Shown here: positions 49,804 through 60,660 of the stretch, one piece after another | Layout of the letters: each line of letters begins with the position of its first letter | Numbering within the stretch: position 1 is the first letter of the stretch | Source of the DNA: Candidatus Xenobia bacterium | GTDB taxonomy: Bacteria > Vulcanimicrobiota > Xenobia > Xenobiales > QWHO01 | Direction of reading: 5' to 3' | Assembly: GCA_045863235.1 (NCBI GenBank) | Contig: BTUM01000008.1 | Span: forward strand, 59,574 to 123,573 | DNA: 64,000 bases | Notes under the pieces: model-generated | Told to the model about the DNA's origin: nothing | The model's database searches: none | Seen by the model: the letters and a program-made list of their open reading frames with translations, nothing else | Made by a program: the position numbers and the translations under genes

Positions 49804-50277
49804 TTACCCCAGCGGCTCGAGCAAGAAGATCTTTTGCCCGGACTCGACCACGGCGGCGTTCTCGACGAGGATGCCGGCAACGCGACCGGGCATCTCAGCG
49901 GTGATCTCGTTCATCAGCTTCATGGCTTCAATGATGCAGAGAGTCTGGCCCACGCTCACATGGTCGCCCACCTGCACGAAGGGCGGAGCCCCCGGGTTGG
50001 GGGAGCGATAGAAAACACCCGCCAGAGGCGAGACCACTGGTCTCAAGTTCTCGTTGGCAGGCTCGGGAGCGGCCGTAGCAGGCCGGACCGGAGAGCGTCT
50101 GGCCGCCACCGCCAGCGGCGTCTGGACGGGGACCGCTACCGGTTGAGCCTCCCCCGTATCCACGATCAGGTGGATACGCGCGTTCTCGTTGCGATAATCG
50201 ATCTCGGCCAGACCTTCTTCCCGGGCCACCCGAGCCAGAGCCCGGGCTAATTCGAGATGTTCCTTCAATCCGCTCAC
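49804..50277 (-). CDS. accB: acetyl-CoA carboxylase biotin carboxyl carrier protein
   Basis: SPLAGVFYRSP, IEAMKLMNEI biotinylation site. Confidence 0.95.
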   Translation of the reverse strand: MSGLKEHLELARALARVAREEGLAEIDYRNENARIHLIVDTGEAQPVAVPVQTPLAVAARRSPVRPATAAPEPANENLRPVVSPLAGVFYRSPNPGAPPFVQVGDHVSVGQTLCIIEAMKLMNEITAEMPGRVAGILVENAAVVESGQKIFLLEPLG

Positions 50278-50470: not shown

Positions 50471-52696
50471 TTACGAACGTCGGGAAGACGAGGAAGAGCG
50501 CCGGCGACGTCCTCCTCCGCTGCTCGAGGAGGCGGAACGTTGCCCGCCGCCACCCGAGCCACCCGAGCCACCTGAGCCGCTCGAGCGGCGGCGCCGACGA
50601 GAGCTGTCCGAATCGCCATCCGAAGCCCGGTAGCGCGAAGCAGCGGCCCGACTCGACTCGAGCAAAGCCAGCTTGGAATCGACCGGGGCTGGCTCATCGT
50701 CGTCGTCTCGAGTCCGACGGCCACGCGGCTCGTCATAGTAGTCCTCGTCGTGATAACGAGGGGCTGGCTCGCTGCGGCGGTAATCGTCCTCGTAAGAGGG
50801 TGGCGCGCTCCTGCTACCGCTCCGGCTCCCGCTCCCACCCCCGCTTGTGCTGGCGCTACTGCGACCGCGCCGCCCGCGGCCCGAGCTTTCGTAGGCTCCG
50901 GTTTCCACGCTCGATTCGCGCGCAGAGCGGTACCGGTCGTCGCGTCCTCGACCCGAGCGAGGGGCCTCCTCGCGACTGTACTCCTCCCGCTCGCGATAAG
51001 CGGGCGGCTCGTCACGATAATCCTCTCGCTCATAGCGGGGCGAATAGTCTTCTCGCTCGTAGTCGTCATAGTAGCGGCGAGTCGAGCTCTCCTCGTATCG
51101 ATCGTCGGGCGGGTAAGCAGCCGCTCGCTCGGAAGTCGAGGTGCGGCTCTCTGCTTCGGAATCACGCCGACTGCGACGGCGCCGACGCGAGCGACTGGAA
51201 GTGCGCTCCTCTTCGGGCTCGTGAGTCGAGACGTGGCGGGTCTCGACCGGAGGAGCATCGTCCTCCTGACCTCGCCGACGGCGACGGCGGCGCTTGGAGC
51301 GCCCGTCCCCCCGCTCGGAAGCGGTCGCAGGCTCTTGCTGCTGGTCGTAGTGCACCTCGAGGTCTGACTCCACGTTGAAGTGGCGCCCGCGCAGAGCTCC
51401 GTTTCGCCGGGTGCCGCCACGCCCAGAGCGGCTCTCCTTCTCTCGTGGAGCGCGCTCGGCCGGAGCCACCGCGCCTCCCATGCCGAGTCGACTGGCCAGC
51501 CGGTGGGCCAGTTCGCTCAGGTTGTAGCGATCCTTGTGGTCGCTGTGACGGTCGTGAACCTGGGCCACGCCCCGGATAGCGTCCTTCTCGCTCAACAGAA
51601 CGAGGAAACGAGGAGCCTCGGGAGCTTCCTCTCCGCCCAGCGCCATTTCAGCGTAAATCCCAGCCTCGCGCAGCACATTCAGAACCGGCATCAGAAGACG
51701 GGTGGCTTCCTCGCCTTCCGGCTGCAGGTAAACCGATGGAGAGGGCCGCGTGAACTCGCCGGGCACAGCTTCCAGAATCGCTTCCAGTTGGAGGGCAAAG
51801 CCGACGGCCGGGGTATCCGGTCCACCCAGGGTCTCCACCAGGCCATCATAACGACCACCGGTGCCCAGCACCGATTCGCCGTGTCGAACCTGGAAGATTG
51901 TGCGGTTGTAATACTCCAGGTCGCGCACCACGCGCGGATTCAGGTCGTGAGGAATCTTCATCTCGGCCAGATAGGCCTTGAGCTGACTGAAATGCTGCTT
52001 ACAGGCCGGGCAGAGCAGGCCGAACATGGTGGGGGCCACCTGCCCGAGCTCAGCGCAACTCTTCTCGTTGCAACCCAGCGTCCAGAGCGGATGAGTCTTG
52101 TGCTTGCGCTTGCAAGTTCCACAAAGCTCGTTGGAATGGGACGAGAAGTACTCCTTGAGAACCTCATGGTAAGCCGGGCGACACTTGTCGCATCCCAACG
52201 AGTTGAGCTCGAAGACCACGTCGCTCAAGCCGATGCGCTTGAGGAACGCCCAGGCCAGGGCGATCACCTCGGCATCCTGGGCCGGGTGGGGCGAACCCAG
52301 AGCTTCGACCCCGAACTGGTGGCTCTGTCGGCTGCCTTCCTCGGTCTCCCGGCCGATCAGGAAGACGGGGGCCAGGTAGTAGAACTTGCTGACGCCCTGG
52401 TTCTTCTCGTTGAGGTTGTTCTCATAGTAAGCGCGTACCACCGAAGCGGTGACATCGGCTCGCAAGGCCAGCTTCTGGCCAAACTTGTCGTGGAAGGTCC
52501 AGAGCTCGCGCTCGACGAGCCCGGCCAGGACTCCCATCCCCCTCACGAAAAGCTCCGCCTTTTCGAACAGAGGGGTTCGAATCTCGAGATAACCGTATTG
52601 CTGACTGAGTAACCGGGCCTGACTCTCGATCAGTTGCCAGCGGGATGTCTCTTCCGGTAGTAGATCACGGGTGCCACGCACCGCTCGGACAGACAT
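50471..52696 (-). CDS. histidyl-tRNA-synthetase-like protein, ATP site degenerate, with long disordered C-terminal tail
   Basis: RGTRDLLP, EIRTPLFE, HQFGVE, VRDLEYY, GGRYDGL, PAVGFA identify the HisRS fold; motif 2 and motif 3 arginines are missing; GGAGG SD. Confidence 0.88.
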   Translation of the reverse strand: MSVRAVRGTRDLLPEETSRWQLIESQARLLSQQYGYLEIRTPLFEKAELFVRGMGVLAGLVERELWTFHDKFGQKLALRADVTASVVRAYYENNLNEKNQGVSKFYYLAPVFLIGRETEEGSRQSHQFGVEALGSPHPAQDAEVIALAWAFLKRIGLSDVVFELNSLGCDKCRPAYHEVLKEYFSSHSNELCGTCKRKHKTHPLWTLGCNEKSCAELGQVAPTMFGLLCPACKQHFSQLKAYLAEMKIPHDLNPRVVRDLEYYNRTIFQVRHGESVLGTGGRYDGLVETLGGPDTPAVGFALQLEAILEAVPGEFTRPSPSVYLQPEGEEATRLLMPVLNVLREAGIYAEMALGGEEAPEAPRFLVLLSEKDAIRGVAQVHDRHSDHKDRYNLSELAHRLASRLGMGGAVAPAERAPREKESRSGRGGTRRNGALRGRHFNVESDLEVHYDQQQEPATASERGDGRSKRRRRRRRGQEDDAPPVETRHVSTHEPEEERTSSRSRRRRRSRRDSEAESRTSTSERAAAYPPDDRYEESSTRRYYDDYEREDYSPRYEREDYRDEPPAYREREEYSREEAPRSGRGRDDRYRSARESSVETGAYESSGRGRRGRSSASTSGGGSGSRSGSRSAPPSYEDDYRRSEPAPRYHDEDYYDEPRGRRTRDDDDEPAPVDSKLALLESSRAAASRYRASDGDSDSSRRRRRSSGSGGSGGSGGGGQRSASSSSGGGRRRRSSSSSRRS

Positions 52697-53119
52697 GATT
52701 CACAAACCTCCGCGGATGAGGGACCGGGCGCATGGCTTGCGCGCCGACGAAGTCCCTTCGATAATGGTGGGCGCCGGCCGTGCCACTCGGGGAGGATGCT
52801 CGCGATCGTCTCAGTGTCTGCGACCTTTCGTCTCGCAGAAAGGATGGCGCGACAAAGGCCGGTGAACGTGGTTCCACGATACCTGACGTTTCACTATTCA
52901 GTTTGCGCCGAATCGGCTCTCTCTTTGTCGCCATCGGTTGCTCGCGTCGGAGCATTCCCCTTCGGTATCAGGGCATCGGACCCTGGGGATGTCGGGGTAG
53001 GTTAACCCGGCGGCCTGGAGGGGAAAGTGGCCTGCTTTCCACGCTGTCATCGCAACGGCTACCCGACATTGAGTTGTTTCGGGGAAGAAGCCAAGTTTCC
53101 TCTCCGGCCAGGAATGGCC
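52697..53119 (-). ncRNA. candidate structured RNA / long leader upstream of the HisRS-like gene
   Basis: Several long complementary pairs (see findings); no convincing ORF; family not recognised; strand inferred from flanking genes. Confidence 0.45.
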
Positions 53120-54427
53120 TCAGGAAACGACCTCTTCGATCAATGGCCGCGGGCTGGTTGGGGTGGCTGCAATCGAGATAGCTTCGCCGATCAGAGCCCG
53201 AGAGGTCTGGAGTTGGGAACGGTCGTTGACGTGGAACGTCAGCAAAGGCTCTCCGGCTTCGACCCGATCGCCCAGGCGTTTGTGGAGGACAAGTCCGACG
53301 GCGTGATCGATGGGGTCGTCCTTGCGCAGTCGACCTGCCCCCAGCACCATCGCCGCGCGGCCCAGGGTCTCTGCCTGCAGACTTGCCACAAAGCCCGACT
53401 CAGGGGCCGGATAGTCCTCCAGGTGAGACGCGGTGGGCAAGAGTCCCGGGTCGTCCACCACCCGAGCGTCCCCTCCCTGGGCACTGATGAGTTCACGCAA
53501 CTTCTCGGCGGCCGCGCCGGACTGTATCAATCGGCCAGCCTCGGCGCGCGCAGCCGAAAGGTCCGACTGCAAACCGGCCATTTCCAGCAGATGAGCGGCC
53601 AACTCGCGGGCCACCTGAGCCAGCGCCGAATCTGCCCGCTGACCCTGGAGAATCTCAATGGCCTCACGAAACTCGAGCGCGTTGCCGATGTGCGTTCCCA
53701 AGGGTTGCTCCATATCCGACAGGGCGGCGCGAACCTTGCGACCCAGGCGCTTGCCAATGGCCACCATCGAGCGAGCCAGGCGACGGGCGTCTTCCAGATT
53801 CTTCATGAACGCCCCGTGACCAAACTTGACGTCCAGCAGGATCGCATCGGCGCCACAGGCGAGCTTCTTGCTCATGATCGAGCTGGCGATCAGGGGGATG
53901 GAATCCACCGTGGCGGTCACATCGCGCAGGGCGTACATCTTGCCATCGGCCGGCACCAGGCTCCCGGTCTGGCTGATGACGGCCACACCGATGCGGCGCA
54001 CCTGCTCGAGAAACTCCTCGGCTGACAGGTTGACGCGCAGCCCGGGCACAGACTCCATTTTGTCCAGCGTGCCTCCGGTGTGGCCCAGACCCCGCCCCGA
54101 CATCTTGGCCACCCGGGCCCCTGCGGCGGCAGCCAGTGGTGCTAGAACCAGCGTGGTCGTATCCCCCACCCCTCCGGTGGAGTGCTTGTCGACCTTGACG
54201 CCGGGGATACTGGAAAGGTCGACCGTGTCCCCCGATGCCACCATCGCCTCGGTGAGCCAGCCAGTCTCCTCGTCGGTCATGCCCCGAAGAAAGACTGCCA
54301 TCATCCAGGCCGACATCTGGTAGCTCTCCATGCGGCCAGCCACGAACTCGCTGATCAAGAAGCGGATTTCCTCGGCGCTGTGGGCCTCTCCGTCGCGCTT
54401 GCGTCGGATCAGGTCGTAGACCCTCAT
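53120..54427 (-). CDS. pdp: pyrimidine-nucleoside (thymidine) phosphorylase
   Basis: KRDG, DKHSTGGVGD, KMSGRGLGHTGGTLDK, ALRDVTATV, SIMSKK. Confidence 0.96.
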   Translation of the reverse strand: MRVYDLIRRKRDGEAHSAEEIRFLISEFVAGRMESYQMSAWMMAVFLRGMTDEETGWLTEAMVASGDTVDLSSIPGVKVDKHSTGGVGDTTTLVLAPLAAAAGARVAKMSGRGLGHTGGTLDKMESVPGLRVNLSAEEFLEQVRRIGVAVISQTGSLVPADGKMYALRDVTATVDSIPLIASSIMSKKLACGADAILLDVKFGHGAFMKNLEDARRLARSMVAIGKRLGRKVRAALSDMEQPLGTHIGNALEFREAIEILQGQRADSALAQVARELAAHLLEMAGLQSDLSAARAEAGRLIQSGAAAEKLRELISAQGGDARVVDDPGLLPTASHLEDYPAPESGFVASLQAETLGRAAMVLGAGRLRKDDPIDHAVGLVLHKRLGDRVEAGEPLLTFHVNDRSQLQTSRALIGEAISIAATPTSPRPLIEEVVS

Positions 54428-59394: not shown

Positions 59395-60660
59395 TTATTT
59401 CTTCCGCCGCCGAATTCGAGTGCGGTGACCCAGCAGCCGAATCAAGTGCTCGCGGCCCCCCTCACCAAAGCCATCGAAGACCAACCCGCAGCCTTCTCCA
59501 ACCCGTGACCAGACCACGTGGCCCACCGCCCGCACGGGCGGGTCGAAGCCCATAGTGACCTCCAGGCTGTCCCCCACCCGCAGGTCTACGTCAGGAATGG
59601 CCATTCCCCCGGCGGAGACTTCGGCGATGCGGTGCAGGACCTGGCCTGTAGGCGAGCCCAGCGACACTCCGACGGTCAGCCCCAGGCGCGGGAAGTTGCG
59701 CCGTTCCTCTCCCAGGAACTCGGACTGAAGACTGACCCGGTTTCGCCCCGCCGATTTGGCACGATAGAGGGCTTCGTCAGCCCTTGCGAGCAGCCAGTTG
59801 ATCACCTCTTCGTCGCCCGGGGAGTGACCCCAATCATCGTTGCTCGGGCGAGACTGATACCAGGACACCCCGATGCTCACGGTGACTTTTTCCTGCCGGC
59901 ACTCTCGCTCCACCGCCCGACGCAGCTTTTCGGCAACCTGGGCGGCACCATTGGGGCTGGTGGAAGGCAAGATGACCACGAACTCCTCTCCCCCAAATCG
60001 AGCCACGACGTCGCCCTTTCGGGTCATCGAGTAGATCAGCGAGGCGACGTCGCGCAGGATTCGATCGCCTTCAAGATGGCCCAAACGGTCATTGACGGCC
60101 TTGAAGTGGTCCACGTCCAGCATCAGGCAAGCCAGAACCGGGGGACCTGGGCGAGAGAAACGCGACACGTGCTGACGCATCGACTCGAACAAATAGCGAC
60201 GCGAAAAGACTCCAGTCAGCTCGTCGCGCACCATGCGATCACGCAGGGCGATATGGCTGCGATAAATGGTCAACTGGGCCCCGATGCGTGCTGTGAGCAG
60301 CGCCGGCGAGCAAGGCTCGACCACGAAATCGTTGGCGCCGGCCTCCAATCCCTGAATCAAAGCCTCCTCGGACAGAGGTCGGGGACTGTAGAAGATGGTC
60401 GGAACGTGAACCAGGCTTTCATCCTGGCGCAACTTTCGACAGGCATCCGGTCCCAGTTGGCTGCTGAGCACGAAGAGCAGGGGGAACCAGGTCTGCGCCA
60501 GGCTCAAAGCTCGAGCGACGGTGGGCGCCCCCTCGACCTCAAAGCCCATGGCGACCAGCTGGCCTTTCAGGGGATCCAACCCCGGGCCAACCAGCAGCAG
60601 ACGAGCGGGATGCTCGACCAGCATTGATACCACACTGGGCTTGGCGGTAGCGTTCTTCAC
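59395..60660 (-). CDS. diguanylate cyclase: degenerate REC + GGDEF + PilZ
   Basis: DELTG, DVDHFKAVND..GH..GD, RKGD I-site, RFGGEEF, AD.ALY.AK..GRNR; RRNFPR...EVSAGG PilZ; start may be ATG 60624. Confidence 0.92.
   Translation of the reverse strand: MKNATAKPSVVSMLVEHPARLLLVGPGLDPLKGQLVAMGFEVEGAPTVARALSLAQTWFPLLFVLSSQLGPDACRKLRQDESLVHVPTIFYSPRPLSEEALIQGLEAGANDFVVEPCSPALLTARIGAQLTIYRSHIALRDRMVRDELTGVFSRRYLFESMRQHVSRFSRPGPPVLACLMLDVDHFKAVNDRLGHLEGDRILRDVASLIYSMTRKGDVVARFGGEEFVVILPSTSPNGAAQVAEKLRRAVERECRQEKVTVSIGVSWYQSRPSNDDWGHSPGDEEVINWLLARADEALYRAKSAGRNRVSLQSEFLGEERRNFPRLGLTVGVSLGSPTGQVLHRIAEVSAGGMAIPDVDLRVGDSLEVTMGFDPPVRAVGHVVWSRVGEGCGLVFDGFGEGGREHLIRLLGHRTRIRRRKK

Follow-up and report, generated by a model that had tools for sequence, protein, structure and literature searches.

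A candidate pseudo-synthetase derived from bacterial-type HisRS, with an arginine-rich tail, in the ancestral hisS slot of a Candidatus Xenobia genome

What becomes of a histidyl-tRNA synthetase (HisRS) that keeps its fold and is stripped of the residues with which it would bind ATP? The question is raised by a gene in a 64,000-nucleotide stretch of DNA from Candidatus Xenobia bacterium (contig BTUM01000008.1, positions 59,574 to 123,573), here called the window, whose own numbering is used for coordinates. The gene is an open reading frame (ORF) at 50471..52696 (-), translated as 741 amino acids (aa) plus stop; a GGAGG ribosome-binding site, read from the sequence, lies at 52707..52711 (-), 10 nucleotides (nt) upstream of the ATG. 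A preliminary description of the window had placed a HisRS paralog at 51480-52696. That interval covers codons 1-405 only, whereas the frame runs stop-free to 50471; what had been missed is the last stretch of the anticodon-binding-like domain together with a whole 326-aa low-complexity tail. Orthologous open frames in relatives are 559-1090 aa long. We shall argue that the protein is a non-catalytic descendant of the lineage's original bacterial-type HisRS, and that it would form a HisRS-shaped dimer with RNA-binding tails, a reading to which we give an even chance of being correct.

The protein has three parts. A class II catalytic-like core with the HisRS insertion domain occupies aa 1-310 (51767..52696 (-)), as supported by PF13393, AlphaFold2 and Foldseek. 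It is followed by an anticodon-binding-like alpha/beta domain of degenerate sequence at aa 320-405 (51482..51739 (-)), recognised from the AlphaFold2 secondary structure at 322-403, and by a disordered tail, aa 416-741 (326 aa; 50471..51451 (-)), which was defined by composition, conserved islands and the ratio of non-synonymous to synonymous substitution rates (dN/dS). In a Pfam scan the core matches PF13393 (tRNA-synt_His) over aa 8-307 with 151 bits, and the hisS model TIGR00442 of NCBIfam scores 298 bits, just above its cut-off of 286.75, over profile positions 2-361 of 406. The HisZ model TIGR00443 scores 153 bits in two pieces, below its cut-off of 271.65. Among sequences of the Protein Data Bank, phmmer finds the HisRS of Staphylococcus aureus (1qe0, 1e-67) and of Escherichia coli (1kmm, 8.5e-63), with HisZ far lower (3od1, 5e-16; 1z7m, 1e-13). 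The anticodon-binding family PF03129 reaches 14 bits against a cut-off of 21 and is thus below threshold, although precomputed annotation places it on two orthologs (P0048 and P0051). No other Pfam family, and no output domain, was found on the 741-aa protein at E-values up to 0.1.

All of the motifs quoted in the preliminary description are present in the translation, namely LRADVTAS (78-85), FLIGRETEEGSRQSHQ, CDKC, CGTC and CPAC, RVVRDLEYY, GGRYD and GFALQLEAI. Motif 1, EIRTPLFE (aa 38-45; 52562..52585 (-)), is retained. Motif 2, FLIGRETEEGSRQSHQ (aa 112-127; 52316..52363 (-)), is degenerate; it was said to have the canonical length, and the alignment to E. coli HisRS (1kmm) is indeed gap-free there. 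It carries the changes R113L, E115G, R121G and F125S and keeps R116, R123 and Q127. The remaining correspondences to E. coli are Q127 to Q127, E131 to E131, D81 to E83, T83 to T85, R258 to R259 and A306 to R311; the ATP- and histidine-binding roles of these residues in E. coli HisRS we take to be those of the structural literature. The insertion domain (52001..52192 (-)) has a fourth cysteine pair, C209 and C214, beyond CDKC, CGTC and CPAC, giving eight cysteines in all (C169, C172, C192, C195, C209, C214, C229 and C232), together with a clade-invariant W205 in place of an invariant arginine. In the HisA-like motif RVVRDLEYY (aa 255-263; 51908..51934 (-)) Arg258 is kept, while the clade has fixed Asp for Gly at 259 and Glu for Asp at 261. 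The HisB motif GGRYD (aa 280-284; 51845..51859 (-)) is retained in the ortholog alignment. Motif 3, GFALQLEAI (aa 299-307; 51776..51802 (-)), is degenerate, with Gln for Gly at 303 and Ala for Arg at 306.

A protein search of 5.8 billion sequences allowed these changes to be followed through relatives. It listed 120 matches, of which the first 63, at 558-1135 aa and 42-100% identity to the query, form the clade under discussion; where they bear names, these are Eremiobacterota, Vulcanimicrobiota and once Armatimonadetes, with the product 'histidine--tRNA ligase'. The remaining 57, of 415-452 aa and approximately 40% identity, are HisRS of the ordinary kind. In a single alignment of all 120 listed sequences, position 113 is Arg in none of the 63 clade members (Leu in 53, Met in 8, Ala and Ser in one each) and in 57 of 57 canonical sequences, and position 306 likewise is Arg in 0/63 against 57/57. 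Position 115 is Gly in 62/63, and Glu or Asp in 56/57 of the canonical set; position 81 is Asp in 62/63 and Glu in 57/57. The motif losses are real, and chance is excluded, because the core scores as HisRS with PF13393 and TIGR00442 and the losses are fixed in 63/63 while being absent from 57/57. From these residues we infer that the protein does not aminoacylate.

Much else is preserved. Motif 1 residues E38, I39, R40, P42 and E45 are each kept in at least 90% of the 63 orthologs; the canonical invariants T83, R123 (62), Q127 (61), E131 (62) and R258 (59) are mostly kept, as are Y262 and Y263 (62/63 each) and GGR-Y-D. New residues have also become fixed. Trp66 is found in 63/63 where 57/57 canonical sequences have Tyr, and Trp205 in 63/63 where 57/57 have Arg; L65, K71, K75, D259, E261 and P337 are further examples. 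Invariant across the whole clade are motif 1, the eight insertion-domain cysteines, W66, W205, D259, P337, R343 and the presence of a tail. This pattern points to a move into a new regime of constraint rather than to random decay.

Selection estimates agree with the earlier expectation that the ATP-site losses would be conserved with a dN/dS below 1. By the Nei-Gojobori method, with the window's genome compared with three genomes of the same genus, dN/dS is 0.024-0.125 for the core (aa 1-310), 0.07-0.17 for the anticodon-binding-like part and 0.11-0.26 for the tail. Values of 0.037-0.195 were obtained when the genuine HisRS was compared between these pairs of genomes; constraint on the dead copy is no weaker than that on the live enzyme. 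It is present as an intact ORF in 41 of 44 genomes of the class.

The live enzyme lies elsewhere. The genome of the window (8.36 Mb in 166 contigs, 97.6% complete) contains a second hisS on contig C59, and the pseudo-copy is thus not the only HisRS, a point left for checking in the preliminary description. The C59 gene is a 434-aa ORF that scores 344.8 bits with TIGR00442 (profile 2-404) and 34 bits with the PF03129 anticodon domain, and has intact motif 2 (WRGERPAQGRFREFYQ), RGLDYY, GGRYE and motif 3 (GVSRL). It lies on the opposite side of the deepest split in the tree from bacterial-type HisRS, and will be called second-type HisRS; it occurs in 40 of 41 genomes (the organism's own and 40 relatives), including 24/24 of high quality. 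The genome has one tRNA-His gene, an ordinary one with C73, CCA and an encoded G-1. Charging is, judging by this gene content, done by the second, intact HisRS, of another type than the gene it displaced. The histidine pathway itself appears to be missing: HisG (PF01634), HisD (PF00815) and IGPD (PF00475) were not found in this 97.6% complete genome by profile searches that were positive for each family in 14/14 control genomes, and one His_biosynth-family gene remains (C6:115616-116305). HisG is present, as frames of 302-326 aa, in only 6 of the same 41 genomes. The organism and most of its relatives (35/41 being without HisG) are probably histidine auxotrophs.

The position of the dead copy in the genome indicates where it came from. 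In 16 loci fetched from the order and class, a phosphorylase gene stands directly upstream on the same strand in 15, FtsA is nearby in 15, NrdR in 13, and a gene for a biotin-carboxyl-carrier-like (BCCP-like) protein follows downstream in 9. In the window, this BCCP-like gene is at 49804..50277 (-) and serves as the marker of the ancestral hisS slot: of eight loci taken from other classes of the phylum, seven have the BCCP-like gene directly after the canonical, intact bacterial-type hisS. Because the pseudo-gene occupies the same slot as the canonical hisS of sister classes, it is the positional descendant of the ancestral hisS, converted in place. Intermediates can be seen. In family f4 the motif-2 and motif-3 arginines are kept, the HisA arginine is lost and an Arg-rich tail is already present; in family f5 Arg113 has become Trp and there is no tail. 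Second-type HisRS is the only type in four genomes, which belong to three other families of the phylum. The family f4 tail has a conserved FDEWAATY-like island of its own (loci L045 (G040), L094 (G105), L096 (G109) and L095 (G098) represent the sister families f4/f5).

The phylogeny is in keeping with this history. In an IQ-TREE tree of 67 rows, built after removal of 10 near-duplicate rows, the clade is monophyletic (SH-like approximate likelihood ratio support 100) and sister to less degenerate paralogs of a neighbouring family (95). It is nested in bacterial-type HisRS, and a branch with support of 100 separates it from second-type HisRS and HisZ. Forcing the clade to group with HisZ costs 53.6 log-likelihood units (approximately unbiased (AU) test, p-AU 3.6e-5). 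The statement that the protein is not HisZ therefore stands, and identity with HisZ is rejected on the grounds of the TIGR00443 score (153 against 271.65), the AU test and the failure to find HisG in the genome. Across the phylum 151 genomes were sampled, and true HisZ, scoring above the cut-off, turned up in 23, none of them in this order; the sample includes one unpublished genome (G127), which was counted only. At two other loci, L071 (G048) and L083 (G059), there is a divergent HisZ-like protein of another family that is also without the arginines of motifs 2 and 3; it groups with HisZ and, at 229-257 bits, falls slightly short of the cut-off of the HisZ model.

What shape would the protein take? 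An AlphaFold2 model of aa 1-420, built from 65 sequences, has a mean predicted local distance difference test (pLDDT) score of 91.9 and a predicted template modelling (pTM) score of 0.86, with the alpha/beta domain at 322-403. The closest Foldseek matches are full-length bacterial HisRS, aligned over about 424 columns (4e51, template modelling (TM) score 0.87; the tRNA complex 4rdx, 0.80), and no HisZ is found within the first 50 matches. A structure model, as had been proposed, thus predicts a core that folds as full-length bacterial HisRS. A homodimer is predicted with an interface score (ipSAE) of 0.85 against 0.00 for the best control, with runs agreeing on at least 96% of contacts and a partner pLDDT of at least 86; the mark so passed was reached by 20 of 30 proteins whose structures were solved as pairs of one chain and by 1 of 23 proteins solved as single chains. 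The predicted interface is formed by motif 1 (residues 37-46), W66-F68 and 329-356 of the C-terminal domain. The model may have passed this mark because HisRS dimers are among the structures it has learned.

The tail is probably the main functional addition to this core. In the window's protein it consists of 22% Arg, 18% Ser, 11% Glu, 10% Gly, 9% Asp and 6% Tyr, with poly-Arg runs and only 4% of Ile, Leu, Val, Phe, Met and Trp taken together. All 63 orthologs are tailed (145-714 aa), with a pooled composition of 18.6% Arg, 12.0% Glu, 11.3% Ser, 9.7% Ala and 9.3% Gly; hydrophobic residues make up 4-15% of each tail, and the net charge is positive in 61/63. Short motifs recur, motif A ([AT][IFLV][IVM]P[ASVI][FL]) in 45/63, motif B ([LV][NS]WS[IL]) in 43/63 and LRPVE[VI]R[RK] in 10/63, and a run of at least five Arg is found in 31/63. 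Two further islands, HFNVESDLEVHYD and DSKLALLESS, are conserved specifically in this genus and, with its closest listed relative, are found in 5/63 and 4/63. None of the motifs listed occurs in any of the 57 canonical HisRS. Variants from environmental sequences differ by in-frame 9-nt and 6-nt insertions or deletions at period-9 and period-6 repeats; tandem repeats of these periods lie in the tail-coding region at 50549-50586 and 50806-50845. An ESM Atlas search with the tail was uninformative (best score 0.83, to unnamed hypothetical clusters; structural TM at most 0.20).

Disordered arginine-rich segments of bacterial RNA-processing proteins bind RNA, recruit partners or drive condensates. 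Only 11 ORFs of at least 300 aa in this genome carry a comparable mixed-charge segment, and they include two RNA-handling proteins. Rho (C2:171467-173731 (-), L107) has an Arg/Glu/Gly-rich insert of approximately 300 aa, with GREHEGRDRG-type repeats, between Rho_N and the RNA-binding domain. PNPase (C62:43626-46535 (-), L108) has an Arg/Asp/Glu/Pro-rich C-terminal tail of approximately 280 aa after its KH and S1 domains. Segments of this type in Rho, like the C-terminal scaffold of RNase E, resemble the tail in being Arg-rich, of mixed charge, poor in hydrophobic residues and provided with short conserved islands; they differ in that the tail described here is attached to a dead synthetase.

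Taken together, these observations suggest the following scheme. The ancestral hisS would have been displaced by the second HisRS and then stripped of its ATP-site residues in its original slot. The HisRS-shaped dimer predicted by the model would present two basic, mixed-charge tails with short docking motifs. By analogy with the HisRS-like domain of Gcn2, the protein would act not as an enzyme but as a scaffold or regulator that binds RNA, most likely tRNA; where the histidine pocket is intact, as in this genus, control by a ligand may be added.

How far would such a protein still dock a tRNA? In the structural account of the Thermus thermophilus complex (PMC4357726), an Arg115/Arg122 pair clamps the acceptor stem of tRNA-His, Glu114 contacts A76 and is essential, and Arg120 contacts C74, Gln117 also being named. 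The same account gives Arg197, Arg204 and Lys209 of the insertion domain as CCA backbone contacts (with Gly260 also named), and Glu386-388, Lys397, Lys399 and Gln404 as anticodon contacts. These residues were mapped with an offset of one residue at motif 2, the mapping beyond motif 2 being inferred. On that mapping, the acceptor-stem clamp pair is kept (K/R116 and R123). Position 121 (R121) is variable among the 63 orthologs and G259 has become Asp in 62/63.

Several findings weigh against the scheme proposed above. On the same mapping, the CCA contacts are changed, with E115 to Gly, Q118 lost, R205 to Trp in 63/63 and K210 lost; this speaks for a non-catalytic protein but against full tRNA docking. 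At 372 the clade has Asn or Asp instead of the Glu that reads the anticodon, and the PF03129 match stays below threshold. The CCA-end entrance is, as far as aligned residues can tell, remodelled; anticodon reading is probably altered; and canonical tRNA docking would be at best partial. Specificity for tRNA-His is doubtful, because the anticodon Glu is replaced and PF03129 is below threshold. The net charge of the tail is modest, at +11 for its 326 aa. Its sequence is not conserved from one family to the next, and the other families have docking motifs unlike those of this genus. The tail type shared with Rho and PNPase is an association rather than a test. The copy is missing from one same-genus genome that is 90% complete. 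Both core and tail are covered, at 95-100% identity, by contigs assembled from the RNA libraries of three studies, but such contigs do not prove transcription, DNA carry-over being possible; their depth cannot rank genes, and contig ends near 52993-53095 were not taken as a transcription start. The tRNA contacts also bear on the claim that the protein had 'specifically' lost its ATP-binding residues: the ATP-site losses hold, but the wording is too narrow, since residues at the CCA end (E115G, Q118, R205W, K210 and G259D) have been replaced as well.

The alternatives to an RNA-binding scaffold can be set against the same evidence. One is that the dead site binds free histidine or a related small molecule, the tail being an output or localisation module. 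In this genus the histidine pocket is kept (D81, conservative for E83; T83, Q127, E131, R258, Y262, Y263 and GGRYD), the core is under strong constraint (dN/dS 0.02-0.13), and with HisG, HisD and IGPD not found at 97.6% completeness histidine must be imported, which would give a sensor something to report. The retention of the pocket, as described earlier, holds for this genus but not for its small-genome relatives. In family f3, with genomes of 1.9-3.3 Mb, the copies are intact at about 730-1090 aa and the pocket is eroded, through MRANML (T83L), Q127R, E131G, R258P, Y262C and GGRYD to GGRCD. Since these f3 copies keep an intact ORF (of approximately 1000 aa) despite the eroded pocket, histidine binding is not a clade-wide function; HisG was likewise found in 0/19 genomes of f3, and no output domain is detectable by Pfam. 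Of the earlier suggestion that the protein may sense histidine or tRNA, histidine sensing is thus weakened as a family-wide function, the pocket not being conserved across the clade. We regard a small-ligand sensor as improbable, at something like one chance in five.

A bolder extension of the scaffold proposal, which we consider distinctly unlikely, would make the protein a kinase-free equivalent, in bacteria, of the Gcn2 sensor module. The dimer would capture uncharged tRNA, and the Arg/Ser-rich, possibly phosphorylatable tails with their docking motifs would recruit, or co-condense with, the RNA-processing proteins of this lineage that bear segments of like kind (Rho and PNPase). If it were true, amino-acid starvation in a histidine auxotroph would be coupled to RNA turnover or to transcription termination. 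The HisRS-like module of Gcn2 is thought to bind deacylated tRNA (PMC11363354). It is the closest analogue for the way in which the protein may work, with the catalytic and anticodon-domain shapes kept without the adenylate elements. In contrast to Gcn2, the protein has no kinase or other output domain, is bacterial and arose independently from bacterial-type HisRS; the two are likened by description, not by sequence.

The protein might also be supposed to serve another enzyme as an allosteric subunit in the manner of HisZ, such as the adjacent phosphorylase or another phosphoribosyl- or glycosyl-transferase. The phosphorylase is directly upstream on the same strand in 15/16 loci, and the RDxEYY and LRxDMT substitutions resemble the HisZ of this phylum. 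Yet a gap of 129-1189 nt always separates the phosphorylase from the pseudo-gene, the two genes are not neighbours in the sister family, nor does the phosphorylase adjoin canonical hisS in other classes, and the clade does not group with HisZ, with HisG not found; we think this very unlikely. The likeness to HisZ, the regulatory subunit of ATP phosphoribosyltransferase, is that of one non-aminoacylating HisRS relative to another, extending to RDxEYY and to an Asp or Met in the LRPEGT box. What sets the pseudo-synthetase apart from HisZ is a score that does not reach the HisZ cut-off, a place across the split in the tree, with the joint grouping rejected by the AU test, the failure to find HisG in its own genome, and the possession of an anticodon-binding-like domain and a tail.

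Still less probable is that the protein remains an enzyme, either a synthetase or an amino-acid ligase with non-canonical ATP binding. The TIGR00442 score is just above the cut-off (298 against 286.75) and the HisA arginine and histidine pocket are kept, but the two class II arginines, Glu115, the Phe that stacks on adenine and the Gly of motif 3 are replaced in all or nearly all of the 63, and no class II synthetase relative is known to be active without them. A complete HisRS is encoded elsewhere in the genome. That the gene is a decaying, redundant copy with a tail read through from GC-rich DNA is hardly credible, for although the catalytic residues have gone and degeneration has taken different courses in different lineages, the ORF is intact in 41/44 genomes of the class, dN/dS is far below 1 in core and tail, tail length variants stay in frame and the clade-specific W66 and W205 are fixed in 63/63.

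Among known systems the direct evolutionary parent is bacterial-type HisRS (that of E. coli, T. thermophilus and S. aureus; TIGR00442). With it the protein shares the fold, motif 1, the Cys-cluster insertion domain, HisA and HisB, the placement of the anticodon domain, the predicted dimer and the genomic slot. It differs in having lost the arginines of motifs 2 and 3, Glu115, Phe125 and several CCA-end contacts, in its degenerate anticodon domain and 326-aa tail, and in coexisting with a functional HisRS. Our literature searches found no description of this family, and a 2022 review of synthetase duplications lists, in the part available, only HisZ as a HisRS paralog (PMC9437257). The family would be a third route from HisRS to a non-enzyme, beside HisZ and the Gcn2 domain, and it has an unusually clear history of displacement, in-place conversion and visible intermediates. 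The Arg-rich segments on RNA-handling proteins of this genome may give a way of testing how RNA is organised in an uncultured phylum. The label 'histidine--tRNA ligase' that annotation pipelines give to such proteins is probably wrong.

Some features of the surroundings should be noted. The upstream neighbour, a pyrimidine-nucleoside phosphorylase (53120..54427 (-)), is mentioned as genomic context. Between it and the dead hisS lies a gap of 423 nt (52697-53119), which contigs from the RNA libraries of the three studies span. A regulatory RNA in this leader was considered and dropped: no match was returned when the whole window was compared with Rfam at gathering thresholds, the z-score for folding of the leader is -0.11, and conservation is confined to the genus (71% identity in one same-genus genome). 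Rfam applied to 801 nt around the gap gave one chance-level match, to DnaX, at 16.8 bits against a gathering threshold of 35. No site resembling a promoter was seen, and the one site resembling a terminator, which lies inside the ORF, is at chance level. The small BCCP-like gene is kept directly 3' of live or dead hisS across several classes (loci L086-L093). Further along, the window encodes at 59395-60660 (-) a response-regulator-like protein with GGDEF and a C-terminal PilZ domain in one chain.

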